From a virus (lineage: Duplodnaviria > Caudoviricetes): a stretch of DNA of 64,000 nucleotides. This document shows positions 8,427 through 52,850 of the stretch, piece by piece. The DNA is taken from positions 5,012 to 69,011 of the IMG/VR virus record IMGVR_UViG_3300033416_000002; one strand, written 5' to 3'. Position 1 is the first letter of the stretch. Each line of letters begins with the position of its first letter. A program made the translations under genes and the position numbers. The notes beneath the pieces are model-generated. The model was not told the origin of the DNA. It saw only the letters and a program-made list of their open reading frames with translations, and made no database searches.

Positions 8427-8888
8427 ATGGTGAAGACGTGGCAGTATGAAGTAGAATTGGCCGACGGAAGTTATCTACAATTCTCCGATAATGTGGGCGA
8501 GAATATCGGAGCAAGGGAAGCCTACAATGCCGCTATCGAGCATAAGTCTGATACAATTTGGATAATATTCTGCGACGGTAATGCGGAGGAATGCGACCTG
8601 GCAGAGTTTTACCGATTCTGCCTTGCAACCTACGTAACCCTATCATGGGGCACGGTCCGGATTGACGACACTACCTCAGCGGACCATAGCAGAATCGCGC
8701 ACGACATACCCGCGAACGATACAATCCCCGCGCGCGCGCCCGCGAACGATACAATCCCCGCGCGCGCGCGCCCGGATAGAATCGTTCGCGTGCGTGAGGT
8801 AGCGCTACACGTTCGGCCGATTCTCCGGCGCTTTGACCCTTACGCTATTACGGTAGTGTCAGATACGTTTATGCTAGGTTGCGCATAA
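8427..8888 (+). CDS. Hypothetical protein (lower GC; contains a 10-aa repeat)
   Basis: AAGGA upstream of ATG, promoter upstream; C-terminal half overlaps a repeat/hairpin, so it may be partly spurious. Confidence 0.4.
   Translation: MVKTWQYEVELADGSYLQFSDNVGENIGAREAYNAAIEHKSDTIWIIFCDGNAEECDLAEFYRFCLATYVTLSWGTVRIDDTTSADHSRIAHDIPANDTIPARAPANDTIPARARPDRIVRVREVALHVRPILRRFDPYAITVVSDTFMLGCA
8709..8790. repeat. 30-bp direct repeat x2 with (CG)n tract and an inverted copy
   Basis: CCCGCGAACGATACAATCCCCGCGCGCGCG twice; ATCGTTCGCG at 8781-8790 is the reverse complement of CGCGAACGAT. Confidence 0.8.
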
Positions 8889-8925
8889 ATAGAATCAGCA
8901 TATCACACAATGTCATATCGAACGT

Positions 8926-8953
8926 TTGTTCTATTGACAGCGTGTGGTATGCT
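8926..8953 (+). promoter_or_regulatory. Candidate early promoter
   Basis: TTGTTC-16nt-TATGCT with TG extension; predicted +1 near 8960 coincides with the first hairpin of a structured leader. Confidence 0.45.
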
Positions 8954-8959
8954 TGTCTC

Positions 8960-9190
8960 AGGCTGCAAAGCCTACCGATTGACGGTAGCGTGTTACAACA
9001 ACACGCTACCGTCAATCGTTGTAACGCTAGGACGTGATAGCGTGAGGATGCCGCTACCACGGATAACGTTAGCGTGAGGATACCACTAACGTTATGTGAC
9101 CGTTGGCCTAGTGGTCGAGCGAATCACTAGGACGGTAGCGTAAATATGACTTCGGGATGAACCCGACGGGGCAGCCCTCGCCCGAAATCT
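8960..9190 (+). ncRNA. Candidate structured RNA / early leader
   Basis: AGGCT-GCAA-AGCCT; 19-bp perfect stem 8976-8994/9000-9018; 10-bp stem 9063-9072/9086-9095; stem 9107-9115/9123-9131 with a G-U pair; stem 9148-9156/9181-9189. Confidence 0.45.
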
Positions 9191-9209
9191 GAGGGCCGCG
9201 GAGGATACC

Positions 9210-9665
9210 ATGTCGCGCAATGACCGCCGCAAGGCGTCGCGCGCGAAGTGGGCCGCGATGGACCGTGAGCAGAGTATGTCCTGCTCGCCCGAAATGGGCG
9301 CATACCTGGCGCACCTATTGCACCAGGGGCCGCGCACTTCGGACGAGAAGCGGATGATGCTCACGGCCCGGCCGGAGGTCGTGCGCTTGCGCGTGCCCGA
9401 CACGTACACTGGGGATATGTACGAGGTCGTGTCGGACCATGGCGCCACGATGAAGGAGCGCGTCCGCAAGTCTATCGTGGACGCGCGCCCGGCCCGGACC
9501 CGGCGTGTGCCGGAGTATGTCGCGCGCGGTAGCCGCGTGCGCGTGCTTCAGCCTGCGCTGCGCCCGACGCCCGCCCACCTGCGCCCGGTGCCCGAACCGA
9601 AGCATGATAGGCGCTGGCGCGTCAACTGGGTTGACGCTACCGGCGAGGTGTTCGCAATCGAATAG
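9210..9665 (+). CDS. Hypothetical early protein
   Basis: GGAGG RBS; first ORF of the early array. Confidence 0.65.
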   Translation: MSRNDRRKASRAKWAAMDREQSMSCSPEMGAYLAHLLHQGPRTSDEKRMMLTARPEVVRLRVPDTYTGDMYEVVSDHGATMKERVRKSIVDARPARTRRVPEYVARGSRVRVLQPALRPTPAHLRPVPEPKHDRRWRVNWVDATGEVFAIE

Positions 9666-9671
9666 AGCGCC

Positions 9672-9756
9672 CAAGGGCGGCCCGTGTCGGGCCGTCCCTT
9701 GACGCGCGCCCAGACCACCTGATGCCGTGCGCATCGGGTGGCCTGGGCGCGCGTTT
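9672..9756 (+). other. Two back-to-back long hairpins (processing site or terminator)
   Basis: 9672-9684/9688-9701, and a 24-bp stem 9702-9725/9731-9754 with one G-U pair and one mismatch. Confidence 0.6.
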
Positions 9757-9779
9757 GCGTGCAGGAGAACGGAGGTAGT

Positions 9780-10043
9780 ATGGCACATCAGGCGTACAGG
9801 GTGTGCCCGTGTCGCGACGGAGAGCAGAAGTTGTACCGCTTCTCCAATGGCTATGGCGCGTCAGTGGTGCGTCATAGCTTCTCATACGGGCACGAAGAGG
9901 GGTTGCGGGAGCTGGCAGTGATTCGGTTCGACAAGGCGGGTGAGTGGGACATCGTGTACGACACGCCAATCACGAGCGACGTGATTGGGAGCCTCACGCC
10001 CTCCGAGGTGGAGACGGTCCTAGACGCCATCGCGGCGCTGTAG
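9780..10043 (+). CDS. Conserved phage hypothetical protein
   Basis: GGAGG RBS; YRFSNGYGASVV..SYG..YDTPITSDVIG pattern, which I recognise as a recurrent phage family. Confidence 0.75.
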   Translation: MAHQAYRVCPCRDGEQKLYRFSNGYGASVVRHSFSYGHEEGLRELAVIRFDKAGEWDIVYDTPITSDVIGSLTPSEVETVLDAIAAL

Positions 10044-10051
10044 GGGGGTCT

Positions 10052-10300
10052 ATGGACTGGGACGCAGGCGATCCAGGGGATCTGATCGCCGAAGCCCGGC
10101 TCAAGACGGGCCGGGTCCAGGTGCGTCGCGTCAGGGTGGGGACTCGTCGATACGAGTTCTTGCTCCGGCGCGAGACTCGCAAGGGGTGGAGATGGCTCTC
10201 CACTCCCGATACGTCGCGGGCTGGTGCGGTATACCAGCTCTGCGAAATGCAGGTCCGTGAAGGATACAAGGAGGGACTGCGATGGAGTTGGTCCGCGTAA
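10052..10300 (+). CDS. Hypothetical protein
   Basis: G-rich RBS, tight packing. Confidence 0.55.
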   Translation: MDWDAGDPGDLIAEARLKTGRVQVRRVRVGTRRYEFLLRRETRKGWRWLSTPDTSRAGAVYQLCEMQVREGYKEGLRWSWSA

Positions 10301-10440
10301 AGAGCGGGCCGTTCCGCAAGCGTCTCGCGCTCGCGGAGCGCCGCAATAGCTCGTGGGTCATGACCTTCGGGGGGTCGGGTGTGCGGGTCGTCGTCCCGGC
10401 CAGGCGGGTCAAGGTCATGAGGGTGCAAAAGGCGGCCTGA
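10282..10440 (+). CDS. Small basic hypothetical protein (52 aa, not in ORF track)
   Basis: GGAGG RBS, MELVRVKSG...QKAA, TGATG coupling to the next ORF. Confidence 0.55.
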   Translation: MELVRVKSGPFRKRLALAERRNSSWVMTFGGSGVRVVVPARRVKVMRVQKAA

Positions 10441-11021
10441 TGGTCACAACGGCGGACCTGATCCGCCGAATGGGTGGGACCGTGCCGAACACGGACAATG
10501 ACACAGGGATAGCGTTTGGCGCGGTCATGCAACACGACCTCGCGGACTGGGTGCTCGACGAGATCGAGACTCACGGTGAGTACGTGGGGATGTGCCAAGA
10601 GGGCGTGTGTGAGGACTGGGGCGATGCCTGCGAGACCTGTTCCGGGCCGGAGGGCGAGGACTTCCTCTACACCTACGACCAGCTCGTAGACGGGCCAGAC
10701 GGCAAGCCGGGGCAACTCAAGATCGAGACGTTCTATCTGGGTGGAGCAATCCATCTGTCGGTGCAGGCGTCGCCCTGGGTGGCGCAGGTTCCGGAATGTT
10801 CGCCGTGCGTACCGTGCGCGGGGGATCTGGAGCCACCGTGTGAGCGGCCCAAGATGGAAAGCCGCAATGCGGCGCGCGCCCTGTTCGATGCGGTTCGGAG
10901 TGAGTTGGCGCGTGCGTGTCCGCTGATCTCGCCCTCGTCGTGGAGGCAGATTGGCACACGGCCTGCGCCAATCATGGTGCTGGCCTACGATCTCCCGCCA
11001 GACTGGTGGCGGGAGGACTGA
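10440..11021 (+). CDS. Hypothetical Cys-rich acidic protein
   Basis: Coupled start; CxxC pairs (CETC, CSPCVPC). Confidence 0.7.
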   Translation: MVTTADLIRRMGGTVPNTDNDTGIAFGAVMQHDLADWVLDEIETHGEYVGMCQEGVCEDWGDACETCSGPEGEDFLYTYDQLVDGPDGKPGQLKIETFYLGGAIHLSVQASPWVAQVPECSPCVPCAGDLEPPCERPKMESRNAARALFDAVRSELARACPLISPSSWRQIGTRPAPIMVLAYDLPPDWWRED

Positions 11022-39223: not shown

Positions 39224-40840
39224 GTGGCTACCCCCACCTCGGTTGAGCGGGCAGCCGCGGCAAGGACTGCTACAAGCAGCCTTCTGTCCTACATCATCCA
39301 CACAACCCCCTTCATTGACATAGGCGGCTTCCATCTGCTGGCGATCGACCATCTCGAGGCCCTCGAGAGGGGCGACTTCGATCGTCTGATGATCAATGTG
39401 CCCCCTCGGCACGGCAAGACCGAGCTGGTGAAGCGGTTTGGGGGCTACCATCTCGGCAAGTTCCCAGACGACATGCTCATGATCTGCTCCTATGGGGCAG
39501 AGCTGGCCTACGAGATCAGCTACGACGTGCGCGCCCAGCTCACTGACAGCTCGTATCCCTTCAACGTCAGGGTGCAGGCAGGCAGGGCGGCTGTCAAGAG
39601 ATGGGGAATCGAGGGCAGGCGGGGTGGGGTGGTTGCTGCTGGTGTAGGCGGGGCTATCACAGGGAAGGGCGCCAACATCCTGATTATCGACGACCCCGTG
39701 AAAGATCGTGAACAAGCCGATTCGCCTACCTGGCGGGACAAGACGTGGCGCTGGTACAGGGATACGGCTTACACGCGACTCATGCCAGGTGGCAAGGTCA
39801 TCGTGATTCAGACTCGCTGGCATCAGGGGGATCTCTCAGGGCTCTTGATTGATGCCATGCAGAACGTGGTCGGTGCAGATGAGTGGGTAGTTCTGAACCT
39901 ACCCGCCCTGGCCTATGGGTCTGACGAGTGGCCCGAGTACATCCCCCCAGAATCCAGGCGAGATCCTCTTGGTAGGCGTCCAGGGCAGGCACTTTGGCCT
40001 GAGTGGTACGATGAAGAGAAGCTGGCTCGCATTCATGCCACGATGTCGGCGGGAGTTGAGGGCCCTCGGGGTTGGAGATCACTGTACCAGCAGAATCCCA
40101 CGGCAATCTTCGGTGGGGTGTTCCAGCGCGAGTGGATGGGCCAGCGATTCGCTACCTATCACGAGCTGGACATCAAGCGCATCGGGATCTTTGTGGACTC
40201 GGCCTTCATAGAGGGTGTGGCTACAGCCTTCAGTGTGGCTGCCGTGTGGGCAGAGACGCCCTCGGGCTTCGCTCTACTGGACGAGTCGAGGGCCAGGGTG
40301 GGCTTTGACGAGCTTCTCCAGATGATTCGGGACTGTTACGAGACCTGGAGGGCTAGGGTGCCCGGGATCATCCCCGAGGTAGTGATCGAGAACAAGGCAT
40401 CGGGCATTTCGGCCATCCAGGTGCTCTCCAAGGGGCAGATTCCAGTTACGCCCTGGCCTGATCCCAACTCGCCCTCTGAGAGGAAGCTGGCTACGGCAAG
40501 CAAGGAAGCCAGGGCGGATCAGGCAACCGTGCCCTTTAGGGCTGGGAAGATCTGGTTGCCACGATCTGCTCCCTGGATTGCCGACTGGGTGACTGAGCAC
40601 ACGGACTTCCCAACCGCGATCTTCAAGGACAGGGTTGATACGACGGGCATGATGGTGTCACGCTTCTACTCTGTGGTCGAGGCGGCCTCGGCCGGGGACC
40701 TGGAAGAGCAGGAGTCGTACTGGGCAAACCAGGCACGGGTCAGGGGTTTCTCTACGGGCTTCAGGGGGGGCGAGGATGGATACCTGGGACATTTCAGACG
40801 AGGAGGTAGGGGTGAGCAAACAGCCGCAATTGATGATTGA
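39224..40840 (+). CDS. terL: Terminase large subunit
   Basis: PPRHGKT Walker A, IIDDP Walker B, IQTRWH, LYQQ.P, VDSA, IENKASG, DRVD nuclease motifs. Confidence 0.95.
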   Translation: MATPTSVERAAAARTATSSLLSYIIHTTPFIDIGGFHLLAIDHLEALERGDFDRLMINVPPRHGKTELVKRFGGYHLGKFPDDMLMICSYGAELAYEISYDVRAQLTDSSYPFNVRVQAGRAAVKRWGIEGRRGGVVAAGVGGAITGKGANILIIDDPVKDREQADSPTWRDKTWRWYRDTAYTRLMPGGKVIVIQTRWHQGDLSGLLIDAMQNVVGADEWVVLNLPALAYGSDEWPEYIPPESRRDPLGRRPGQALWPEWYDEEKLARIHATMSAGVEGPRGWRSLYQQNPTAIFGGVFQREWMGQRFATYHELDIKRIGIFVDSAFIEGVATAFSVAAVWAETPSGFALLDESRARVGFDELLQMIRDCYETWRARVPGIIPEVVIENKASGISAIQVLSKGQIPVTPWPDPNSPSERKLATASKEARADQATVPFRAGKIWLPRSAPWIADWVTEHTDFPTAIFKDRVDTTGMMVSRFYSVVEAASAGDLEEQESYWANQARVRGFSTGFRGGEDGYLGHFRRGGRGEQTAAIDD

Positions 40841-41160: not shown

Positions 41161-42855
41161 TTGACGAAGTACGACATCGGCAATCTCAGGGCCATGGCCC
41201 GGACTGATCCGGCATCCCTAGACAAAGACATGAAGAACGCCCTGCTGGCCGCGGCCCTAGAGGACCGCGGTATCAGTGGGGCTCGACGCATTTCTGAGAC
41301 CGGCGACCTCTCAGACCCCGAGGACCGGGCTCGAGAACGAGAGATCCAGGAGGGCATCTGGGACGGGGACGATCCCGATCGCTTCCTGGGCGACTCGGTG
41401 GGCGGACAGCCCTACATGCGCAGGATCACCTCTGCCGCACGGCGCAAGGACCTCACGCCGATGCAGCAGGAGAAGATGTTCAAGCTGGCGGTCTTCCTCT
41501 GGGATCGCAACCCACTTGCCGCCAGGGTGATCCGTCGTGCCGTCAACTACGTCCTGGGTGAAGGTATCCAGGTAGTGGCTCGGCACAAGAAGAACGAAGT
41601 TCGCAACGAGATTCAGAAGATCATCGACCAGTTCTGGTTCGACCCCCGGAACCGCCTCGATGTGCGTCTGCTGCGTTGGGCTCTGGCTTGGCGTGCCTAT
41701 GGTGAGTTGGCCTTGAGAGTGGGCGTCAATCCCGTTACCGGCCTGGTGCGTCTTGCCTACATCTCTCCCGAGATGATCACCGACGTGAAGACCGAGCCTG
41801 GGGACATCGAGCAGCTCGAGAAGCTCGTCGTCAGGAAGGTCGAGCAGGACGAAAACGGCAACGTGCGAGAGATGGTTGGGAAAACTGAAGATCTCGCCAT
41901 TGTAGCCACCTATGAGGGCATACCAATATCAAGCGACGAGAAGCTACTCGAACGAACGCCCGGCAGGCAATATGGGCAAGCGTTCTACTTCGCCGCCAAC
42001 ACCCTGCCCGACATGGTGCGAGGGCGCTCGGATCTCCTGGCGATCGCCGATGTGCTGGATGCCTACGATCAGTTCATCTGGACCAGGATGGAACGACAGG
42101 CGATGCTCCTCGCGTTCGTTTGGAGCATCGAGCTGGCGGGGGCAAGCAATGAGCAGATCGACGCCTGGATCAAGAAGCACAGGAGTACTCCCCGTCCGGG
42201 CTCACTCCAGGTCCACAACGAGAAGGTGAAGTGGAATCCTGTCTCACCCACCCTGGGAAGCAGCGAGGGCCTGCAAGAGAGCGACCTGATCATCAACTAC
42301 ATCGCCACCTCGCAGGGAATGCCCGGGATGTGGTTCGGGCGCGAGCAGGATCCCAACAAGGCTAACGGCTCGAACCTGACAGGGCCCACGCTCAAGGATC
42401 TCACTTGTCTCCAGAACGAGTTCAAGGGGCTGATCTCCCGACTGCTGATGTTCGTGCTGGACGTGGCGATTCAGCAAGGGAGGCTCCCTGATGACCTCGA
42501 TCTCCGACAGAGCTTCGACATCCAACTCCCCGACTTGTCCCAGAAGGACATGGCCCTTACGGCCACCACGCTTGCTACTCTGGCCAACGCCCTGACGGCA
42601 GCTCGCACGGGCCAGATGATTGACCTTCAGACCTCGCAGGAGGTGTTCCTGCTCGCCCTAGCACCCACGGGGATCGAGGCAGACATTGCCGAGGTCAGGA
42701 AGCGCATCCAGCAGGAGACAGAGGACGCCGCCGCCAAGCAGGAGGAGGAAACCGAGAAGTGGTACCAGCAACAGGCTGCGTACCAGCAGTCTGCACAGCC
42801 AGCACAGACAGAGGGCGAGGCAATGCCCGAAGAGGAGTACACTGGCTATGACTAG
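41161..42855 (+). CDS. Portal protein
   Basis: 564 aa after TerL; NPLA..I....V.G.GI, GRSDL, P.PGS..VHN.KV.W motifs. Confidence 0.85.
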   Translation: MTKYDIGNLRAMARTDPASLDKDMKNALLAAALEDRGISGARRISETGDLSDPEDRAREREIQEGIWDGDDPDRFLGDSVGGQPYMRRITSAARRKDLTPMQQEKMFKLAVFLWDRNPLAARVIRRAVNYVLGEGIQVVARHKKNEVRNEIQKIIDQFWFDPRNRLDVRLLRWALAWRAYGELALRVGVNPVTGLVRLAYISPEMITDVKTEPGDIEQLEKLVVRKVEQDENGNVREMVGKTEDLAIVATYEGIPISSDEKLLERTPGRQYGQAFYFAANTLPDMVRGRSDLLAIADVLDAYDQFIWTRMERQAMLLAFVWSIELAGASNEQIDAWIKKHRSTPRPGSLQVHNEKVKWNPVSPTLGSSEGLQESDLIINYIATSQGMPGMWFGREQDPNKANGSNLTGPTLKDLTCLQNEFKGLISRLLMFVLDVAIQQGRLPDDLDLRQSFDIQLPDLSQKDMALTATTLATLANALTAARTGQMIDLQTSQEVFLLALAPTGIEADIAEVRKRIQQETEDAAAKQEEETEKWYQQQAAYQQSAQPAQTEGEAMPEEEYTGYD

Positions 42856-45800
42856 TGCGAGCCAGGCGGGCTTTCTTCTCCTCGAGCACCCAGGTCATCC
42901 TGACCAATCAGTACATGCACCAATCAAGCGGGCCGCGCGCGCGGTCAAGCGGGTGCGCGTCAAGTTGAAGGATCCAGCTCGGCGGAAGGCCTACTTGAAC
43001 GCTGCCGGTCGCGGTGCTGCGGAGGGGTATCTGAAGGGTGCCGCTCACGCCGCCGCCCTGGGTGCTGGTGCTATGGCGCTCCGTGGTGGACGAATGACAA
43101 CCGCCGAAGATCTGATGGGGGGGGCGCTAACCGGAGCCTTCTTCGGTGCTCCGGCAGGGGCCTTGATCGGGGCGGGGGCCGAGATGCGCCGAGAGAACCG
43201 CAAGCGAAAGCGAGAGAGGGTCAAGGAGTCTGGTGTGAACCACCTCGATATGGCAAGGGATCTCCGCTTGGATCTTCTTGAGCATCCGGGGCACCCCGAT
43301 CAGTCTGTGCATGGCAATCGGCAGACCACGATGTCAGGGGGGCGGATTACTGGCTCAATGAGGCGCAGGGCGTTTGTGCGTGGCGCGGCAGAAGGGGCGT
43401 GGGCCGGGGCAAAGCTGGGTGCGAAAACAGCAGCCATGGGAGCTGTGACCGATGTTGCTATAAACCTCGCTCTTGCCAAGGTGACGGGAGGGTCGGTTGG
43501 CGTCAAGCAGGCCTCGCGGCTACTGAAGTCCAACGTGCCCGCCGCTAAAAAGGCGGTGACAAGGGCGGTTGTGTCAGCGACGGTTCTTCATGGTATGAGT
43601 GCGGCGGTGAGAGGGCCAGACGACATAGCGGGTGGTGACCTCCGCTCGCGGGTCAAGGATTATGCGCGTTACTCCAAGATCCAGCGCATGAAGGCCGAGC
43701 GGACGATCAGAAAACTTCCCCCCGATCAGCAACGGGCTGCATTTGAGAACTGGACGAGGGCGTCTCAACGCGAGATCCTGGGGGGATTCGATGCTACCGG
43801 CAAGCTGACATTCACCAACCGCGGTACTACGAGAGGTGTTGGGCCGAGTTATGGCTCTCTCCTGACGGGGAAGGCGCAAAGAAGCAAGGCCCTGAGTCAC
43901 GTACACCCAACCAATGCCGCGAACTATCTCTCCTCTGGAGACATGGCCGCCGCTTTCAAGGTGGGAAAGGGAATAGCCTCCGTAACTCCCGAGGGAAAGA
44001 GAGAAGAACTTAGAGTGACGGGGGGCGCCAAGGGTCTATGGCAAGGAATGGCGGCCAAAAACGCAACAGCAAGGTACGATAATGAGATTCAGCGGCGAGC
44101 CTGGGGGACCAGGGAGTATGTCACGCGCGGAACGCAGGTGACGAAGCGTTCTGGCGGCTCCGGGAAGATGATGCGAGGCCATCTTGCCGCAGTGGCAAGG
44201 GAACACAAGGGTCACGAGAAGACTGCCAAGACCAGACTTGGCAAGGCCTATCACGCCAAGAGGGCCAAGGGCGCCTTGGAGCTAAGGGCAAAGGTAAGGG
44301 AAACCGACATGAATCACCTCGATGTGGCAAGGGGCTTTCGCCTGGAACTACTCGAGCACCCAGGGCACCCGGACCAGTCAGTTCACAGCCCGGTGAAAAG
44401 GGCCGGGCGCCCTACCCGTGGATCTGGACGCACGTCTCGCGTTGGCTCCATGAAGCAAGGTGCCAGGCGGGTTGGGGGCAGGCTCAAGCCCGGAGAGCAC
44501 GCGGGCAACGTTGCTCGCATTGCCAAGGGCGCAACGGCTGGAGCGGTACAGGGAGCTGTTACCGCGGCGATCTTCGCTCCATTCACTGGGGGTCTCTCGG
44601 CGGCATCAGTTGGTCGGCAGGCCTTGGCAGGAGCACTTGTGGCCGGGGGGGGGAAGGCGGAGGACATTGGTTCCCAGTACCGCTCGGGAGGGCGCAAGCT
44701 CAGGCGCGAGGCCCGTGGTCGGGTTACCAAGAAAGCGCAGAATCGGATCCAGAAAGCCGCCGCAAGGCAAGAACGCCGAGGGTCGGCCTATTCCACCCTG
44801 GGCACGGTGACTAGAGTGGCGGGCTATGGAACGGCATTTGGCTTGGATCGCCCGCTACGAAGTGGTATTCGTGGGGCTGGGGCGCGCGTGGGTGCGGCGC
44901 GGGTCAATCGAGGCGCGGCGGGTCGAAGGCACACGGCTACCGGACCAACGATCGGCCTGGGTAAGGGTGGCTATTGGGTCAAGGAGAGTCGCGGGGACCT
45001 CCTTGAGATCGGAGTTGCTCCTTGGCAGGAGGGCAAGCACAAGCGGGTCGGTGGGAAGTTTGCCGCCAAGAACGCCGGGCCTCCGGGTGCGCCAGCCGCT
45101 CCCATTGCTCCCACCACGTTCACCAAGCCCACGGGAGTAGCAACCGTTGGCCCCATGAAGCCCACGGCCATGGCGAGCCCAGCTCCAGCACCGGCTGGCC
45201 CTCGCCCCGGAGCCCCCCCTCCCGCATCAGCGGGCAGGGGTGGCGTGCGTCCCACCAAGAAGGGTGGGCGTGACGCGGGAGGCAAGGGGCGGCCTGCTGG
45301 AATGCCTGAGTCCAAGAACAAGGGGAAGAGTCGATTTCGCGCCGGAGAAAAGACCAGGTGGAAGCCCGGGGATCCGGTGCCCACGGGGAGAGGGGGAAAG
45401 CCCATGCCTACCAAGAAGAAGCCCGTTGTGAAAAAGGTGGTAAGGGAATCCACCGACATTCTTGAGCACCCCGGGCATCCCGACCAGAGCGTCCATTCAC
45501 CTATCAAGAGGGCGGGAAGGGCGATTCGTGGCGCAGGGAAGGCGCTCGGCAACAAGCCCAAGGTGAGACGCGCGAAAGCCACCATCCGTGCCGCTGGCAA
45601 GGTGAGGAGCGCGGGTCTCAAGGCGAGCAAGGTGGGCTACAAGGCGGGAAGGACTCTTGCACGTTCACCCATCACGGCCGTGAGGACCGCGAAGAAGGGT
45701 GCCGGGCCTGCCGTTGCCTACGCCTCCGACATCAAGGGAGCCGCCAAGGCAACGAAGGGCATCAAGCAGCAAGCGGCCCGTGAGCTGAACAAGACCAAGT

Positions 45801-46411
45801 GGAGCGAGTTGGGCAAGACCGTTACTCGCAAGCAGAGTCTCAGGCAGAATCGCGCCAATGTGAAGGCCAAGAAGAGGGAACTGAGGAAAGAGGCCGGGCG
45901 CAGGGAGCGTGCGGCTTGGGGAGCGGCGCTCAAGGGTCAGGGTCCCCGGATGCAGAAGCGCCGAGTCAAGGAAAGCGCCATGGACTTGCTCGAGGCCGCA
46001 CGCGGATTCGAGAGCGGGATGTGGCTTCTCGAGCATCCAGGGCACGCGGATCAGAGCGTGCATGGCAGCCGTGGCACGCGACTCAAGGGACGCATCAAGA
46101 GTGCCATCAAGTACAAGACGCTAGCCAAGCAGTTCAACCCAGACAAGACCAATCGGGGTTTCCAGGCGGGATCCATGAAGGTGGGCGGCAAGAAGGTGAG
46201 CGCCAAGGAGTACAACGCCGCTACGGGGATGAAGGGGAGTGTTCATACGGCACAGTGGCGCCCGGGGGCGGCGTATCAGAAGGTAGTCTCGTATACCCCG
46301 AGGGGTAGGGCCGAGGCAGAGGTTCCCGACTACTCTCACCGCGTACATCGGGATACGAAGGTGGCTGTAAAGAACGAGAACCGAAGACGTTTCGCCAAGA
46401 AGAAAGCATAG
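42848..46411 (+). CDS. Large Lys/Arg/Gly/Ala-rich protein with five (L/I)LEHPGH(P/A)DQSVH motifs; putative head-cargo polyprotein
   Basis: Start MTSASQAG overlapping the portal stop; motifs at about 42881, 43277, 44351, 45461, 46028; JAB-like HVHP..SSGD at 43898-43942. Confidence 0.75.
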   Translation: MTSASQAGFLLLEHPGHPDQSVHAPIKRAARAVKRVRVKLKDPARRKAYLNAAGRGAAEGYLKGAAHAAALGAGAMALRGGRMTTAEDLMGGALTGAFFGAPAGALIGAGAEMRRENRKRKRERVKESGVNHLDMARDLRLDLLEHPGHPDQSVHGNRQTTMSGGRITGSMRRRAFVRGAAEGAWAGAKLGAKTAAMGAVTDVAINLALAKVTGGSVGVKQASRLLKSNVPAAKKAVTRAVVSATVLHGMSAAVRGPDDIAGGDLRSRVKDYARYSKIQRMKAERTIRKLPPDQQRAAFENWTRASQREILGGFDATGKLTFTNRGTTRGVGPSYGSLLTGKAQRSKALSHVHPTNAANYLSSGDMAAAFKVGKGIASVTPEGKREELRVTGGAKGLWQGMAAKNATARYDNEIQRRAWGTREYVTRGTQVTKRSGGSGKMMRGHLAAVAREHKGHEKTAKTRLGKAYHAKRAKGALELRAKVRETDMNHLDVARGFRLELLEHPGHPDQSVHSPVKRAGRPTRGSGRTSRVGSMKQGARRVGGRLKPGEHAGNVARIAKGATAGAVQGAVTAAIFAPFTGGLSAASVGRQALAGALVAGGGKAEDIGSQYRSGGRKLRREARGRVTKKAQNRIQKAAARQERRGSAYSTLGTVTRVAGYGTAFGLDRPLRSGIRGAGARVGAARVNRGAAGRRHTATGPTIGLGKGGYWVKESRGDLLEIGVAPWQEGKHKRVGGKFAAKNAGPPGAPAAPIAPTTFTKPTGVATVGPMKPTAMASPAPAPAGPRPGAPPPASAGRGGVRPTKKGGRDAGGKGRPAGMPESKNKGKSRFRAGEKTRWKPGDPVPTGRGGKPMPTKKKPVVKKVVRESTDILEHPGHPDQSVHSPIKRAGRAIRGAGKALGNKPKVRRAKATIRAAGKVRSAGLKASKVGYKAGRTLARSPITAVRTAKKGAGPAVAYASDIKGAAKATKGIKQQAARELNKTKWSELGKTVTRKQSLRQNRANVKAKKRELRKEAGRRERAAWGAALKGQGPRMQKRRVKESAMDLLEAARGFESGMWLLEHPGHADQSVHGSRGTRLKGRIKSAIKYKTLAKQFNPDKTNRGFQAGSMKVGGKKVSAKEYNAATGMKGSVHTAQWRPGAAYQKVVSYTPRGRAEAEVPDYSHRVHRDTKVAVKNENRRRFAKKKA

Positions 46412-46421
46412 GAGCAATGCC

Positions 46422-46886
46422 ATGACTGTGGATCTGCTTGAGGCCGCCAGAAACTTCGAGGATGAGCTTTATCTCCTTGAGCATCCGGGGCACCCCGATC
46501 AGAGCGTCCATTCGCCCGTCAAGCGGGCGGGGGGGGCGATCCGTAGTGGAGCCCAGAAAGCTGGTCGCGGGGCGAAGGCCGCGGCAAAGGTCGCCCTGGG
46601 CGTACACCCCAAGCAGAACGCGGCGAGAAAGGAAGCCTGGGGCAATCTGGCCAAGAGGGGGAAGAAGGCTGGTCGCGGGGCGAAGGCCGCGGCAAAGGTC
46701 GCCCTGGGCGTACACCCCAAGCAGAACGCGGAGAGAAAGGAAGCCTGGGGCAATCTGGCCAAGAGGGGGAAGAAGGCTGGCCGGGTGGCGAAGGCCGCGG
46801 GGCGCGGGGTGGCAGGTGTTATGCGCGCCATGGGTGATTCGGCAACGGCAGATGCTCGAGCACAGAAAAAGAATCGCTCCAACTAG
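46422..46886 (+). CDS. Basic protein with the same LLEHPGHPDQSVH motif and a 36-aa tandem repeat
   Basis: MTVDLLEAARNFEDELYLLEHPGHPDQSVHSPVKR; 108-nt period repeat 46557-46800. Confidence 0.75.
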   Translation: MTVDLLEAARNFEDELYLLEHPGHPDQSVHSPVKRAGGAIRSGAQKAGRGAKAAAKVALGVHPKQNAARKEAWGNLAKRGKKAGRGAKAAAKVALGVHPKQNAERKEAWGNLAKRGKKAGRVAKAAGRGVAGVMRAMGDSATADARAQKKNRSN

Positions 46887-46898
46887 GAGTAGCAGACC

Positions 46899-47732
46899 GT
46901 GCCCTACAAACTGAAGGGCAACTGTGTCATTCGAGCCGACACAGGAGAGACGGTGAAGTGCCACAAGACCAGGAAGAAGGCCCTGGCCCATCTGGCCGCC
47001 ATGGAGATCCACATACACGAGGCGGTCGGGTGGGTTGAAGGCAAGCACCCAAGAGACGATGTTGGGAGATTTGCCTTTCTCCATGGGGGTCGAACTGTAG
47101 ACTCAACCCGCCTCTCGCGTTCGTCTATCAAGGACGGGAGGTTGCTAGGGCTCGAGCATCAGTTTGCCACTCCCGCGGCGGCCAGGAAAGAGGCCATCGC
47201 TGATCTCCAGCAGGTGGCCAACCGCTCCCATGGAGAGTGTGCCTACTTTCTCAGTGGCAATCGGATCACAGCCCATTCCAAGACCTCCACCCCGGGGAAG
47301 ATCCACCTGGGTACAAGGGATGAACTGATGGGTAAGGACGTGATTCACTCACACCCGCATGGAGTTGCAGGACTCTCACCCGCAGACATGTGGGCGTTCT
47401 CAACGGGGGGTATGAGATCCTTCTCGTCCGTAACAGCGGACGGAACTGTAACCGGAGTGCGTCTCAAGAAGGGCAAGGATCACCCCGAGCTGGGCGTTGC
47501 GGCCACAATCGGTGGGAGAATGGCGGAAGACGTAATGATCCGCGCGCAGTATGAAGTGCAAATGCGAGGTCTGGGCACGCATCACAAAAAGGGAGGGATG
47601 GACATCCCAACCCCTGAGGCTAGCAAGGAAATCTGGAAGTCGTTCACAAAGTACATGAGCAACTCTGCCGTCCGAAATCCGGATGGGTCCTTGGTCAAGG
47701 TCGGTGACTACTACGAGTTCTTTGGTGGATGA
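46899..47732 (+). CDS. Head-associated protein with JAB/MPN-like (JAMM) motif
   Basis: N-term MPYK...CH.T...ALA.LAA; WVEGKHPRDDVGRF; E..HSHPHGVAGLSPAD equals HxHx7SxxD. Confidence 0.65.
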   Translation: MPYKLKGNCVIRADTGETVKCHKTRKKALAHLAAMEIHIHEAVGWVEGKHPRDDVGRFAFLHGGRTVDSTRLSRSSIKDGRLLGLEHQFATPAAARKEAIADLQQVANRSHGECAYFLSGNRITAHSKTSTPGKIHLGTRDELMGKDVIHSHPHGVAGLSPADMWAFSTGGMRSFSSVTADGTVTGVRLKKGKDHPELGVAATIGGRMAEDVMIRAQYEVQMRGLGTHHKKGGMDIPTPEASKEIWKSFTKYMSNSAVRNPDGSLVKVGDYYEFFGG

Positions 47733-47733
47733 C

Positions 47734-49260
47734 ATGAAACCACACCGGCAGCCACCCATTCGCCAAGAAGTTTGGGATGTGGATGGGGGGGTCCCCCCAG
47801 CCGAGATCGAGATTGACGAGAGGGCCTTCGTGGGTACCTACGCGCCCCGCAAGAAAAAGAAGACAGTGCATGAGGTGGCATCTCCCATGCGACTGCCTAC
47901 TGGGCGTGTGCTGCGCAGAACACTTGTTCTACTCGAGGCTGGTGGGTACAACCCCTACAGGGATCGGCTGGGGCGATTCGCCTCTGGTCCTGGTGGGGGT
48001 TTTGGGGCAGGCTTTGCGGCGAGTAGAGGCAAGCCCTCTCGATTTGGTCCCATGGCCAAGGCTGCCCTCAAGGCGGCGCAGGCGGCCAAGGTGGGCAAGT
48101 CGTGGAAGCAGATGACCAGCCCCAAGTACCCCACTGGCAAGAGCGCCACCACCCTGAAAATCGCAGGGGGAGGGGTCTATCGCACTACTCGAGGACAAGG
48201 AGCCGTTCTGCCAGGCAGTCGCCTGACACCCAACCAGGCCAGGGCCATTCGCACGATCATGGGCAAGCCCAAGGTGCAGTCCGCAACTCGAGCTGGACGA
48301 GCGGTGCATCGTGGGGCAGTGATTGGCGGGATGAAGACCGGCAAGGTGGGCCTGAAGGTGGCCAGCAAGGCAGTCGCCGGAGCATCCGAGGCCCTTGGTG
48401 GCGGATCCTCGGTGACCTCGAACATTGGCCGCATGACCGGCAGGACTGCGGGCAAGGTCCTGAGGACGCGCAGTGGGAAGATCGCCGTGGCAGCAGCGGC
48501 GGGCGCCGGGGCTGTCTACGTGGCGGGTCGAGTAGGAACCAAGTCTGCCCGTGAGCAGCTCGATCACTCCCAGAAGATCATGTACGATCGCAACTCGAGG
48601 ATCGCGTGGCGCAAGAACCAGGAGATCCTGGGGCGCAACGGCAACAAGATCAAGCCTGGCGATGAGGTCAAGGTTGGGCCAGGCAGAAAGACCTACACCT
48701 ACCTGGGCGGTGAGCAGCGCCGTCAGGGCCGACTCTGGACGACCAATGGCAAGATGCTCGTGGCGGACAAGGATGGCAACGTCAAGTCCGTCAGATACGC
48801 CACCATCATGTCTGGGGGCAAGCGGTCCAACATGGACTCCAAGTTCGCCATGCAGATGGCCGAGGATCACAGCAAGGCCACCTGGGGAGACAAGCTGGCC
48901 AAGCGTCACGCGGTTTCCGGGGTCAAGGCGGCGATCAAGTACCACATCATGACCAAGCGGTCCTCGCGCCAACGAATCAGGAAGGAGCTGCGCAATGACA
49001 TCCGGAACCTCGGGCGGTCCTCTCTGAGGGGGGCTGCTGCGGCCAAGATTCTGGGACGCCTTGAGTCTCAGTTCTTCTCCAAGCAGATGAAGCGCCAGCG
49101 GGACTGGGCTCCTCGCCCTACGGCCAGAGAGAGGAATGCCCGCCAACGGGTCGCTGAGGGCAGGCCTCGTCCCAGGAAGGGGCGGCGCCCCGGGGACGAA
49201 GAGCTGCTTCAGGGCGGCTTCAAGAATCCGCGGCACCACTACGGGCCACGCGCATCCTGA
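47734..49260 (+). CDS. Large basic head-region protein
   Basis: LLEAGGYNPYRDRLGRFASG motif followed by a K/R/G/A-rich body. Confidence 0.7.
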   Translation: MKPHRQPPIRQEVWDVDGGVPPAEIEIDERAFVGTYAPRKKKKTVHEVASPMRLPTGRVLRRTLVLLEAGGYNPYRDRLGRFASGPGGGFGAGFAASRGKPSRFGPMAKAALKAAQAAKVGKSWKQMTSPKYPTGKSATTLKIAGGGVYRTTRGQGAVLPGSRLTPNQARAIRTIMGKPKVQSATRAGRAVHRGAVIGGMKTGKVGLKVASKAVAGASEALGGGSSVTSNIGRMTGRTAGKVLRTRSGKIAVAAAAGAGAVYVAGRVGTKSAREQLDHSQKIMYDRNSRIAWRKNQEILGRNGNKIKPGDEVKVGPGRKTYTYLGGEQRRQGRLWTTNGKMLVADKDGNVKSVRYATIMSGGKRSNMDSKFAMQMAEDHSKATWGDKLAKRHAVSGVKAAIKYHIMTKRSSRQRIRKELRNDIRNLGRSSLRGAAAAKILGRLESQFFSKQMKRQRDWAPRPTARERNARQRVAEGRPRPRKGRRPGDEELLQGGFKNPRHHYGPRAS

Positions 49261-50300
49261 TGCCCACACGACGACGGGCTCGGCGTGCCACTCGCCTTAG
49301 GCGTACCTCGCAAGAGGTCGCCTTCGAGGCAGAGATGAACGCTGCCCGCAAGGAGATCTTCACCACGGTCAATCAGACCAAGGCCCAGGTGATGGTCACG
49401 CTCAAGGACACCCGTAGTCTAATCGACCACGAGATTGCGCGGATTGGTGGGCCTGTGGGCCGTCTGGGCCCAGGCGAGCTGGCCGCCGCCCAGACAGCAG
49501 TGGACGTGGCCATTGTGGACATGGAGCGCAGACTCCAGTTCGCCATGCGGACTCACTTGCAGCGCATGTTCGGACTCGGGAGCGCCGCGGTGGATCGGGG
49601 GGTACAGAGGGCTCACCTCACGGCCGTGCTGCCAGCTATCGACACGGCTCAGGTCGAGATGGCCGTGGCCAACAGCCATCGGCTCGTGTCTGGTCTCTCT
49701 CAGCTCTCGCGCGGGCGCCTACACGATGTGATGGTGCGCGCCACCCTGGCCAGGCAGACTCCGTACCAGGCCATGCAGCAGATCGGGGACCTCTTGCGCG
49801 AGGGCGGGCGCGGGACTCCTCCAGGCAGACTTGCTGCCGAGGCAGAGCGCATTTACAGGACAGAAGGCCTGCGCACTGCCAATCTGGCCAACTACGCCCG
49901 GATGGAGCAACTCGCTACCAGGGTGCCTGGCTCCCACAAAAAGTGGATTCATGGAGGCGGGGGCAGGGATCCCAGGGAGCACCATGCCAGGATGAACGGG
50001 ATGGTCATCCCGATGGACCAGGACTTCATCCTGGTGGACAAGAAGGGGCGCAGATGGAAGGCATTCGGGCCACATGACCCAGGCCTGCCTCCTGGCGAGG
50101 TGATCAATTGCACTTGTACTCTGGGCATGGTTTTGCCCGGCTTTAGAACCTACGACTTGACACATGGCACCAAGCAACTCAGAGGGCTGCGCCGGAGCGC
50201 CATCCAGGCTGAGTGGCAGGCTACATCAATGGACCCAAGGCTCTCGCCTGTTATCAGCGCCCTGGACAGGGTGATTGGGGGAGGCGTTGAAATCCCGTAA
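49260..50300 (+). CDS. Head morphogenesis protein (MuF / SPP1 gp7-like)
   Basis: RI.RTE, KKW, R..H..MNG, P..P.EVINCTC motifs. Confidence 0.85.
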   Translation: MPTRRRARRATRLRRTSQEVAFEAEMNAARKEIFTTVNQTKAQVMVTLKDTRSLIDHEIARIGGPVGRLGPGELAAAQTAVDVAIVDMERRLQFAMRTHLQRMFGLGSAAVDRGVQRAHLTAVLPAIDTAQVEMAVANSHRLVSGLSQLSRGRLHDVMVRATLARQTPYQAMQQIGDLLREGGRGTPPGRLAAEAERIYRTEGLRTANLANYARMEQLATRVPGSHKKWIHGGGGRDPREHHARMNGMVIPMDQDFILVDKKGRRWKAFGPHDPGLPPGEVINCTCTLGMVLPGFRTYDLTHGTKQLRGLRRSAIQAEWQATSMDPRLSPVISALDRVIGGGVEIP

Positions 50301-50528: not shown

Positions 50529-52850
50529 ATGGCCAATGACAAGCATCTGATCCTTGAGACCGGGGGAGTGCTACTCGGCCCCTCTGGGAAGAACGGCTCC
50601 AAGTGGCGAGTGACCCTGATCGAGGAGGGCATCTCCAAGAACAGGCGCTACTACGGTGGAGACATGCTCGAGCGGGATGCCAGGATGTTTGATGGCTTGC
50701 GGGCATTCGTGGATCATCCCACTCCTGAAGAGCGGCAGTCCCGCCCCGAGGGCTCGGTGCAGCGGCTGGCAGGTTGGTACGACAACGTGGGAATCGTCAA
50801 CCAGGGCGGGAAGCGGCGGGTTGACGCGGATCTCAATGTGATCAACCCGGAGCTTCGTCAGACCATGCTGAACGCATGGGAGATGGGCCGCCCGGATCTC
50901 ATCGGCTTCTCGATCAACGCCTCGGCCACCAATCTTCGCCCTGCAACGATTGGGGGGCAGGTGGTGGAGACCGTTGATGGCTTTCAGACCGTCAGATCGG
51001 TGGACGTAGTGACGATCCCTGGTGCAGGCGGGGTTATCCGAGCAGTTCTCGAATCAACTGGAGGCACTACCATGGCCGATCCCTTGACGGCAGAGCAGAT
51101 CAAGGAACTGGTCGAGTCGGCGGCGGCTAAGGCGGCCGAGGAGGCAGCTTCGCGGACGGCTGAAGCGTTCCGCGCGGCCCTGCTCGAAGCCGTTGAGGAG
51201 GCCGAGGAAGGCGAGACCGGGGATTCCGACACCGACCCCGACATCCCCGAGGAGGAAGAGGGGGACGAGGAGGTCGAGGACGAGGACGAAGACGAAGACG
51301 AGGAAGGTGAGGGCGAGGAGGACGAGGGGTCGCTCGACGACGCCGTGGAGGAAGCCCTCCGGCCGGTGATGAAGCGCATGCAGCGGCTCGAGAGGGAGCT
51401 GTACGAGTCGGCGGGCATGCGCTACATCGAAACCTCACTCGCCGCGAGCACCCTCCCCGATCCCTTCAAGGAGCACGCGCGCACGCGCATGGTCGAGCTG
51501 CTCGAGGCTGGGGCGTTGACGGCCGACAGCGGCAAGAAGATCGTTGAGAGCACGGCAGAGTTCGCCGGGAAGGTGGCCCCCGTGAATCCGACTGGCACGC
51601 CGGGTACGGTTGTGACCATGGGCAAGGACGAGTGGGATCGCTACCAGGCAGGGCTCGCCGTCATGCTGGGGGCGCCCTCGACCGCCGAGAACCGCGGTTT
51701 CGGCTCGATCATGGAGGCGTACTACAACTATCCCGGGCAGGACCGCCGCTGGGGCGGCTTCTCGGCCCTGGAAGTCTTCAACGCCCTCTCCGATCCGGGC
51801 GCCAACCGCCGCATCTACGACTCCGAGCTGGACGCCAAGCGGGTGCAGGAGTCCGTGACCACGGCGACCTTCGGGCAGCTCTTCGCTGACGTGATGTACC
51901 AGCGGATGATGAAGACGTTCAGCGAGATGCCCTACCGGGACTGGACCAAGCTGGTCTCCCAGCGTGAGAACGTCACCGACTTCCGCTCGCGGCGGTGGAT
52001 CCGCTGGGGGATGTACGGCAACATCCCCGCCGTGGGACAGGGTGCGCCGTACCAGCCTCTGACCACGCCTGGCGACGAGGAAGCCTACTACTCGATCAGC
52101 AAGTACGGTGGGCTCGAAGACCTGACGATCGAGGCTGTGACGATGGACAACCTCGGCCAGCTGCGCCAGATCCCCGAGAAGCTCTCCTACGCTACCGCGC
52201 GCACGCTGTTCGAGTCGATGATGGACCTCGCCACCACGGGCGGCCTCACCACCGTCACCACCTACGACGGTGTGGCCACCTACGCCAGTGGGCACACCAA
52301 CCTGTCCACCTCGAACACCTACCTCCTGAACCCTGACGGCCTGGACTCGGTGCAGCAGGCCATGCGCGCGCAGGTGCCCTACGGGGCTCCGGCGACCGAG
52401 TACCTGGGAAGCCGCAACAAGATCAAGTACCTGATCGTTCCGCCTTCCTACGAGTATCGGGCCAAGGCGTTCCTGAATCCGAGCGACAAGTTCCAGGCCA
52501 GCCTGGTTCCGCTGGACGCCAGCCAGAGTTCCGCCGTGCTGCGCGACCTCGGCGCCTTCGGGACGATCGACCCGTTCGCCTTCGCCAACCAGGGCATCGA
52601 GGTCATCGTCTACGACAAGCTGACCTCCAACCACAACGTCTACGTCTTCGCCGATCCGAACCAGCCGGGCATCGAGACGCTGGTGGTCGGTTTCCTCAAC
52701 GGCCGGGACACCCCCGAGCTGTTTGTGCAGGATGCCGGGACCAACGCCGGGTCGGCCTTCACCGCGGACAAGATCACCTACAAGGTGAGGATGTTCTGGG
52801 GGATGTGCTGGCTCGACCACCGCTCGGCCTACTGCATGCAGATCACGTAG
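50529..52850 (+). CDS. Prohead protease (T4 gp21/S77-like) - scaffold - major capsid (HK97 fold) fusion
   Basis: G.SKN.RYY, VDHP (His), GFSIN (Ser) in the first ~175 aa; acidic helical scaffold; capsid domain after VQES with DFR, EE..Y...KYG, Mu gpT-like C-term. Confidence 0.88.
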   Translation: MANDKHLILETGGVLLGPSGKNGSKWRVTLIEEGISKNRRYYGGDMLERDARMFDGLRAFVDHPTPEERQSRPEGSVQRLAGWYDNVGIVNQGGKRRVDADLNVINPELRQTMLNAWEMGRPDLIGFSINASATNLRPATIGGQVVETVDGFQTVRSVDVVTIPGAGGVIRAVLESTGGTTMADPLTAEQIKELVESAAAKAAEEAASRTAEAFRAALLEAVEEAEEGETGDSDTDPDIPEEEEGDEEVEDEDEDEDEEGEGEEDEGSLDDAVEEALRPVMKRMQRLERELYESAGMRYIETSLAASTLPDPFKEHARTRMVELLEAGALTADSGKKIVESTAEFAGKVAPVNPTGTPGTVVTMGKDEWDRYQAGLAVMLGAPSTAENRGFGSIMEAYYNYPGQDRRWGGFSALEVFNALSDPGANRRIYDSELDAKRVQESVTTATFGQLFADVMYQRMMKTFSEMPYRDWTKLVSQRENVTDFRSRRWIRWGMYGNIPAVGQGAPYQPLTTPGDEEAYYSISKYGGLEDLTIEAVTMDNLGQLRQIPEKLSYATARTLFESMMDLATTGGLTTVTTYDGVATYASGHTNLSTSNTYLLNPDGLDSVQQAMRAQVPYGAPATEYLGSRNKIKYLIVPPSYEYRAKAFLNPSDKFQASLVPLDASQSSAVLRDLGAFGTIDPFAFANQGIEVIVYDKLTSNHNVYVFADPNQPGIETLVVGFLNGRDTPELFVQDAGTNAGSAFTADKITYKVRMFWGMCWLDHRSAYCMQIT

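Follow-up and report, generated by a model that had tools for sequence, protein, structure and literature searches.

A recurrent HPGHxDQxVH peptide at the module starts of phage head-cargo proteins and its link to prohead proteases

How phages choose the proteins that they inject together with their DNA, and how these are loaded, is known in detail for a few model phages only. The question is raised by a 64,000-nucleotide stretch of a Caudoviricetes virus (IMG/VR record IMGVR_UViG_3300033416_000002, 69,011 bp with direct terminal repeats), of which bases 5012-69011 were analyzed and are referred to as the window herein. Between its genes for a portal and a MuF-like head morphogenesis protein lies a 6.4-kb block of four open reading frames (ORFs), none of which has a match in Pfam, PHROG or NCBIfam. 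A preliminary description of the window, made from its letters alone, had noted that one short peptide recurs in this block, above all in an ORF of 1187 amino acids (aa), and had proposed that it marks basic head-cargo proteins cut by a prohead protease. Why would a single peptide be kept between protein segments that are otherwise unrelated?

The general idea that head cargo is cut by a prohead protease is already known from T4 and from giant phages. In the giant phages phiKZ and SPN3US, many head-internal ejection or inner-body proteins are reportedly cut after Glu by a gp21-like prohead protease; they are encoded as separate genes with propeptides, and we know of no invariant peptide that they share behind their cut sites. 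The T4 enzyme gp21 cleaves I/LxE sites behind the Glu and strips off capsid-targeting leaders (PMC12991175). For the polyvalent proteins of phages and conjugative elements, which are multi-enzyme proteins encoded beside portal and MuF, the proposal is that they pass into the host along with the DNA and are cleaved into units (Iyer, Burroughs, Aravind 2017, PMC5512222).

Results

Six junctions share a peptide that is kept at the protein level

A scan of the window with the pattern E-HPGHxDQxVH yielded six matches, all on the plus strand (42884, 43280, 44354, 45464, 46031, and 46479), and none in 100 dinucleotide-preserving shuffles, which agrees with the six copies of (L/I)LEHPGH(P/A)DQSVH counted in the preliminary description. 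Five copies lie in the 1187-aa ORF, with the core His at aa 14, 146, 504, 874, and 1063, and one lies at aa 21 of the 154-aa ORF that follows (Table 1). Both ORFs open with short leaders, of 13 and 20 aa, that end in LLE. Over 13 codons, the six junctions are ~97% identical as protein, 0.77 as DNA and 0.45 at third positions, and 54% of the codons for identical residues differ synonymously. A third-position identity of only 0.45 implies that selection acts on the peptide and that the repeat is kept at the protein level, so the synonymous divergence reported earlier is borne out.

The sequence ahead of the peptide is less regular. The element V(K/R)E(S/T)..(D/N)xL(E/D)xAR.F, which had been called usual at this place, precedes copies 2, 3, and 5 in full and copies 4 and 6 in part. 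The same spacer and motif occur both inside the polyprotein and at the start of the stand-alone gene at 46422. By BLASTP, the modules between the motifs are mutually unrelated, as had been claimed, save for the junction peptides themselves and a weak match of module 2 to the 277-aa ORF (E 0.005).

If every junction were cut, the predicted products would have isoelectric points (pI) of 9.4-12, or 10.8-12 without the 277-aa ORF, and the predicted excised spacers would be 6-18 aa long with a pI of 4-5. A second class of module-start peptide replaces HPGH directly behind LLE or IHE at three places (45038, 47046, and about 47947). These starts are of the WxEGKH(P/K)R..G(R/K)F or the YNPYRDRLGRFA type, with WQEGKHKRVGGKF at 45038, WVEGKHPRDDVGRF at 47046, and YNPYRDRLGRFA at about 47947; the 525-aa ORF has LLE/AGGYNPYRDRLGRFA at aa 83-100. 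The second-class peptides were not found in the other motif-bearing proteins that we collected.

The invariant part is HPGHxDQxVH, and it recurs with many kinds of cargo

To see which residues are conserved beyond this phage, a profile built from the six junctions was searched against 1.84 billion cluster representatives (E<=1e-3). The profile matched 43 representatives, most with 2-7 copies; these occupy aa 12-21, residue 61 (one family), or a position between domains. Their invariant part is HPGHxDQxVH followed by Gly, Asn or Ser and then a Gly/basic stretch; a hydrophobic residue lies three places ahead of the core, and the second His of the core can shift by one position (HPGxHDQ). The residue directly ahead of the core was Glu in 50 cases, Lys in 39, and Arg in 4. 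Because this residue is Glu, Lys or Arg depending on the lineage, LLE is a lineage feature that lies outside the universal motif, and the conserved unit first described as LLE-HPGH is corrected here to HPGHxDQxVH. We know of nothing like this core in T4. No Pfam, PHROGs or NCBIfam model covers the motif, and full-text literature searches, which took in papers on polyvalent proteins and MuF toxins, retrieved no description of it.

Stand-alone genes too carry the motif near the N-terminus. Each module hence seems to need a copy of its own, and the motif may thus act during loading or in the mature protein. The Pfam cargo domains in motif proteins are PI3/4-kinase-like, ADPrib_exo_Tox, DRAT, HicA, HNH, HD, NUDIX, PARP-like, Zeta_toxin, and DUF7178, and one motif-bearing protein starts with a portal domain, that is, it is a portal fusion. 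Only two sizeable homologues of the polyprotein were found, P0005 (1566 aa) and P0006 (1925 aa). P0005 is 36% identical over 32% of the query and has six pattern-matching junctions and one module that is a HicA domain. P0006 likewise has six pattern-matching junctions, for which HMMER gives seven matched stretches, and its modules include PI3/4-kinase-like domains, an ADP-ribosyltransferase, and DUF7178.

At the DNA level, a degenerate pattern located 42 stretches in 35 IMG/VR records, nearly all in proper frame and context. MuF was present in 21 of the 35 records, many of which are fragments, usually less than 10 kb away on the same strand, often as a neighbor and sometimes immediately upstream. 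As a common partner of the motif, MuF was set aside; Pfam finds no MuF in the S78 lineage described below. A pattern scan of 185,579 prokaryote genomes returned more than 120 matches, almost all of them wrong-frame chance matches in high-GC DNA, and about five that look real (L059, L060, L086, L111, and L162). A locus search with the capsid fusion of this phage found one distant relative only. Taken together, these sequence comparisons show that the motif is not private to this phage and suggest that it is widespread.

Cargo domains also occur without the motif. For instance, P0021 matched GenBank phages, F116-like and others, in its cargo domain only (aa 86-228), where the motif is absent. 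Large virion proteins of Pseudomonas F116-like phages (F116, H66, and LKA5) share the cargo module phrog_2859, the motif excluded, and so do such proteins in phages of Salmonella, Vibrio, and Klebsiella; the module is labeled 'PLxRFG domain-containing protein' in one record and internal virion protein in another.

The residue ahead of the core follows the protease family

Records that carry the motif could be sorted by the residue ahead of the core. The Glu type comprises only two records, this phage and G009 (69.5 kb), and both encode the same protease-scaffold-capsid fusion protein. The Arg type goes with a Pfam S78 (HK97-type) protease in 3 of 3 records, and the Lys type with S78_2 (XkdF-type) protease records in 14 of 14, where the protease adjoins the motif genes. 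The second site just upstream (<=30 aa) shows the same trend. At Glu-type junctions it is hydrophobic-x-Glu followed by a small residue in 42 of 51 cases and hydrophobic-x-Lys in 4, and at Lys-type junctions it is hydrophobic-x-Lys in 44 of 73 and hydrophobic-x-Glu in 18. Since the preceding residue follows the protease family, the motif is tied to prohead proteases generally and not to Glu-specific S77 enzymes. The association that had been looked for with S77 proteases extends to prohead proteases at large, and its restriction to Glu-specific S77 enzymes has to be dropped given the Lys and Arg types.

In three lineages, one ORF encodes both a protease domain and, directly behind it, the motif. 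In the S78 family it appears behind the protease domain as LAEFR-HPGHGDQSVH at aa 240-253 in 13 of 120 homologues, and two S78_2 architectures have the same order, in a 530-aa ORF (G014) and in a 1146-aa frame (G031/G015).

Two further observations concern the S78 and S78_2 enzymes. Phages whose capsid protein has no propeptide keep an XkdF-type (S78_2) protease directly behind motif cargo genes (L171 in G035, 9575-10441, and L172 in G008, 8629-9906). With a capsid that lacks a propeptide in these two S78_2 phages, cargo would be the natural substrate, which suggests that the enzyme serves cargo rather than capsid. In addition, many HK97-type S78 proteases of 500-640 aa (P0078-P0171) have a C-terminal Hva1_TUDOR domain (PF11160), acid phosphatase (PF03767) or PF19141 and lack the HPGH motif, and protease-cargo fusions of this kind may use other junctions.

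The fusion protease has a predicted gp21-like fold

In this phage, the candidate enzyme is the N-terminal domain of a 773-aa protease-scaffold-capsid fusion encoded downstream of MuF. For the domain (aa 1-175), Pfam offered no family up to E<=5, S77 (PF03420) included, and PDB sequence searches with it gave no match. A PF03420 search of the related record G009 was also negative, with controls that were equally silent, so it carries no weight. The fusion as a whole resembles NF045541 (prohead protease/major capsid protein fusion) below the cut-off (114.7 vs 525 bits). For an AlphaFold2 (AF2) model of the N-terminal 180 aa (pLDDT 76), the best structural match was T4 gp21 (5jbl_A; Z 10.1, root mean square deviation 3.1 Å, 123 aa), followed by herpesvirus proteases at Z 7.9 (VZV protease) and 6.2, with unrelated folds at 5.3 or less. 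Foldseek returned the same families, weakly. As modeled, the protease domain has the gp21/assemblin fold, in keeping with the gp21-type protease named in the preliminary description.

In an alignment of four fusion homologues, the candidate catalytic residues S128 and S157 do not vary, and H63 is present in three of the four, with a His a few residues off in the fourth. All four fusions also keep E441, which lies three residues ahead of the capsid core and has a hydrophobic residue two positions earlier (VQE/S, LRE/S, and LSE/A); a second Glu in the scaffold, E340, is likewise invariant. The two border sites listed beforehand, VLE/S at 51045 and VQE/S at 51843, both lie where they had been placed, and the hydrophobic-x-Glu at the capsid border is the site whose invariance we observed. 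The N-terminus of the fusion (50529-50561) reads MANDKHLILE/TGG, in which hydrophobic-x-Glu/Thr recalls the MRLIE/TT leaders of Glu-type cargo in other phages.

Discussion

Processing by the prohead protease as the preferred reading

The sequences and the model show a motif that is placed by module and spread widely through phage head modules, a gp21-like fold of the protease, and an agreement of the preceding residue with the protease family. Our preferred reading, to which we give a probability of about 0.55, is that a prohead protease processes the cargo at these junctions and so sets free about nine very basic products and small acidic spacers. The proteins of the 6.4-kb block would be loaded into the prohead and there cut into separate very basic products, with the 1187-aa ORF acting as a cassette polyprotein. 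A two-part junction would open each module: a short acidic, lineage-specific spacer that ends in hydrophobic-x-Glu, often with another V-(K/R)-E/(S,T) site 6-20 residues ahead of it, and then the near-universal HPGHxDQxVH with its Gly/basic tail. The gp21-fold fusion protease would cut after the junction Glu and release the capsid domain at VQE/S in one and the same step of maturation. The yield would be about nine basic products of 12-47 kDa together with small acidic peptides; six products would start with HPGH, and three with one of the variant peptides WxEGKH.R..G(K/R)F and YNPYRD..GRF. What we infer is cleavage and its exact bond, that the products are packaged, and whatever role the core may have. 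From the preliminary interpretation, modular head-cargo proteins are retained, with the motif at module starts here and in unrelated phages, while the LLE-bound unit and the S77-only link are given up.

Several results weigh against processing by the prohead protease. To our knowledge, ten near-invariant residues beyond a presumed cut far exceed what prohead proteases read, so the core must have some function over and above cleavage. In an AF2 model of the motif-bearing S78 protease, the motif is disordered between a helix and the helical C-terminal domain and is not docked in the active site; such disorder fits a linear motif and tells nothing about its partner. No catalytic His is invariant in the fusion protease alignment. 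Across the whole polyprotein, hydrophobic-x-Glu is only mildly enriched (15 observed vs 9.6 expected, P 0.04). The match of residue to protease is drawn from few independent lineages, namely two related Glu-type phages and one S78 clade. Lastly, no cultured phage with the motif turned up: tblastn searches of 50,697 GenBank phage records returned nothing for the polyprotein, for two motif-rich relatives or for a 21-aa junction peptide.

What the core itself might do can be put forward as a weakly held guess: it could be a docking element or a retained N-terminal cap. A bolder version of the processing model, which we hold tentatively and with clearly less confidence than processing itself, takes HPGHxDQxVH as a portable addressing-and-processing code. 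Any protein behind the core would be loaded into the prohead and freed by the phage's assemblin-fold protease, the preceding Glu, Lys or Arg would be tuned to the enzyme, and the core would stay behind as a His-rich N-terminal cap with a role of its own, e.g. metal-dependent docking or protection of the new N-terminus.

The same invariance could instead be that of a functional peptide that is never cut, a metal-, DNA-, portal- or scaffold-binding bead along an intact polyprotein that anchors or threads cargo in the head. Three His, Asp/Gln, and a basic tail would suit such a bead; the constant part is HPGHxDQxVH and not the residues ahead of it, the second His slides by one as a ligand might, the motif is disordered in the AF2 model, and stand-alone genes carry it near the N-terminus, where a cut would separate nothing. 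We nevertheless consider this doubtful, since it gives no reason for the way in which the residue ahead of the core and the paired upstream site vary with the protease family, or for the frequent place of the motif directly behind a protease domain. It is also compatible with cleavage and so is in part a complement to it.

An improbable explanation is that the peptide is an evolutionary seam which keeps cassettes exchangeable and has no biochemical role of its own, like the conserved peptide before the variable domains of polymorphic toxins. The unrelated modules between motifs, which differ among phages, and the finding of the same module as a separate gene or fused are what a seam would produce. 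A third-position identity of 0.45, however, speaks against DNA-level homology as the selected feature, ten residues are invariant across phages with different capsids and proteases, and the protease link would be left unexplained. Least probable of all is that the motif cleaves itself or that a cargo-borne peptidase does the processing, for which the JAB-like modules at 43898 and 47346 would be the candidates: although HxHx7-8Sx2D (JAB/MPN-like) strings occur in module 2 (43898), in the 277-aa ORF (47346), and in the homologue P0005, and polyvalent proteins have been proposed to be processed by embedded peptidases (PMC5512222), neither module has a match to a JAB family in Pfam even at E 5, the nearest Atlas models of the 277-aa protein are phage minor capsid proteins (TM about 0.5, leads only), most motif proteins elsewhere have no peptidase among their detected Pfam domains, and the Glu/Lys/Arg pattern would go unexplained.

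Relation to known systems

If processing by the prohead protease is correct, the closest parallel would be the internal proteins of T4 (IPI-III and Alt), which are small basic head cargo with short leaders that end in hydrophobic-x-Glu, cut by a gp21-fold protease, with one enzyme for capsid and cargo (PMC12991175). In T4, however, the proteins are separate genes with one leader each, whereas here a polyprotein has repeated internal junctions and a ten-residue core, and the protease, for which Pfam has no matching family, forms one protein with scaffold and capsid. The polyvalent proteins share the portal/MuF context, and kinase and ADP-ribosyltransferase domains of their kind occur in the relatives P0006, P0007, and P0009. 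Unlike the polyvalent proteins, for which embedded zincin-like peptidases were proposed (PMC5512222), the modules of this phage contain no recognizable enzymes. The downstream gene also shares its protease/scaffold/capsid architecture with scaf_prot_MCP2 fusions (NCBIfam; phage mEp460 type), but that family covers the capsid gene and not the cargo junction, and the match is below the curated cut-off. Against this background, what appears to be new is the shared junction, its use in a polyprotein, and its occurrence with three protease families.

With a junction peptide in common, effectors delivered from the head could be picked out of metagenomes by sequence; such a handle would also help predict the mature ends of these effectors, and would help in studying how prohead proteases choose their substrates. 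The motif spans three protease families and many kinds of cargo, which is the breadth that such a handle needs. A further practical use could be as a tag with which foreign proteins are brought into phage capsids in laboratory strains, as is already done with the T4 targeting sequence.

Gene order and further features of the window

The gene order bears out the context given in the preliminary description and runs from the large terminase gene (TerL) through portal, four ORFs, and MuF to the protease-scaffold-capsid fusion (Table 1). The 3′ end of the portal gene and the start of the cargo polyprotein share 8 nt. The modules of the window are mostly basic and of low complexity, with no recognizable enzymatic domain in Pfam or NCBIfam, and the 1187-aa ORF has a strongly positive net charge. 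The 277-aa ORF is merely mildly basic (net +10), so that the earlier wording of four very K/R/G/A-rich ORFs was overstated for this one.

Table 1. Coordinates of the genes, junctions, and domains discussed, in window positions
Feature	Position	Strand	Remarks
Large terminase (TerL)	39224-40840	+	
Portal gene	41161-42855	+	phrog_10963 portal, E 8e-31
1187-aa cargo polyprotein ORF	42848-46411	+	five HPGH-type modules and one WxEGKHKR..GKF-start module
Junction 1	42878-42916	+	13-aa N-terminal leader ending LLE, then HPGHPDQSVH
Junction 2	43274-43312	+	LLE-HPGHPDQSVH; VKE/S 18 aa upstream
Junction 3	44348-44386	+	LLE-HPGHPDQSVH; VRE/T 18 aa upstream
Alternative junction	44999-45061	+	VKE/S..LLE/I, then WQEGKHKRVGGKF (45038) where HPGH would be
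Junction 4	45458-45496	+	ILE-HPGHPDQSVH; VRE/S 6 aa upstream
Junction 5	46025-46063	+	LLE-HPGHADQSVH; VKE/S and LLE/A upstream
154-aa single-module cargo gene	46422-46886	+	opens with the spacer of junction 5, then junction 6
Junction 6	46473-46511	+	in 154-aa ORF, behind the spacer of junction 5
277-aa ORF	46899-47732	+	start IHE/A..WVEGKHPRDDVGRF; JAB-like string HxHx7Sx2D at 47346
525-aa very basic ORF	47683-49260	+	
MuF-like head morphogenesis gene	49260-50300	+	PF04233, E 7e-8; phrog_2468, E 1e-22
773-aa protease-scaffold-capsid fusion	50529-52850	+	
Prohead protease domain of fusion (aa 1-175)	50529-51053	+	ends VLE/S; phrog_15531; gp21-like fold (predicted)
Acidic scaffold-like segment	51054-51851	+	repeated hydrophobic-x-E/(S,A) sites; ends VQE/S
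Major capsid protein domain (Mu gpT-like)	51852-52850	+	PF25209 Phage_capsid_4, E 2e-31, aa 442-768

Two minor features of the cargo genes were also observed. In the 154-aa ORF, a 36-aa segment (GRGAKAAAKVALGVHPKQNA...) is tandemly duplicated (46563-46778, aa 48-119). Gly/Ala-rich hydrophobic stretches of ~19 aa occur inside otherwise very basic modules at 43112-43168, 43427-43609, 44519-44575, and 48472-48528, and these could be membrane-inserting helices of ejection proteins.

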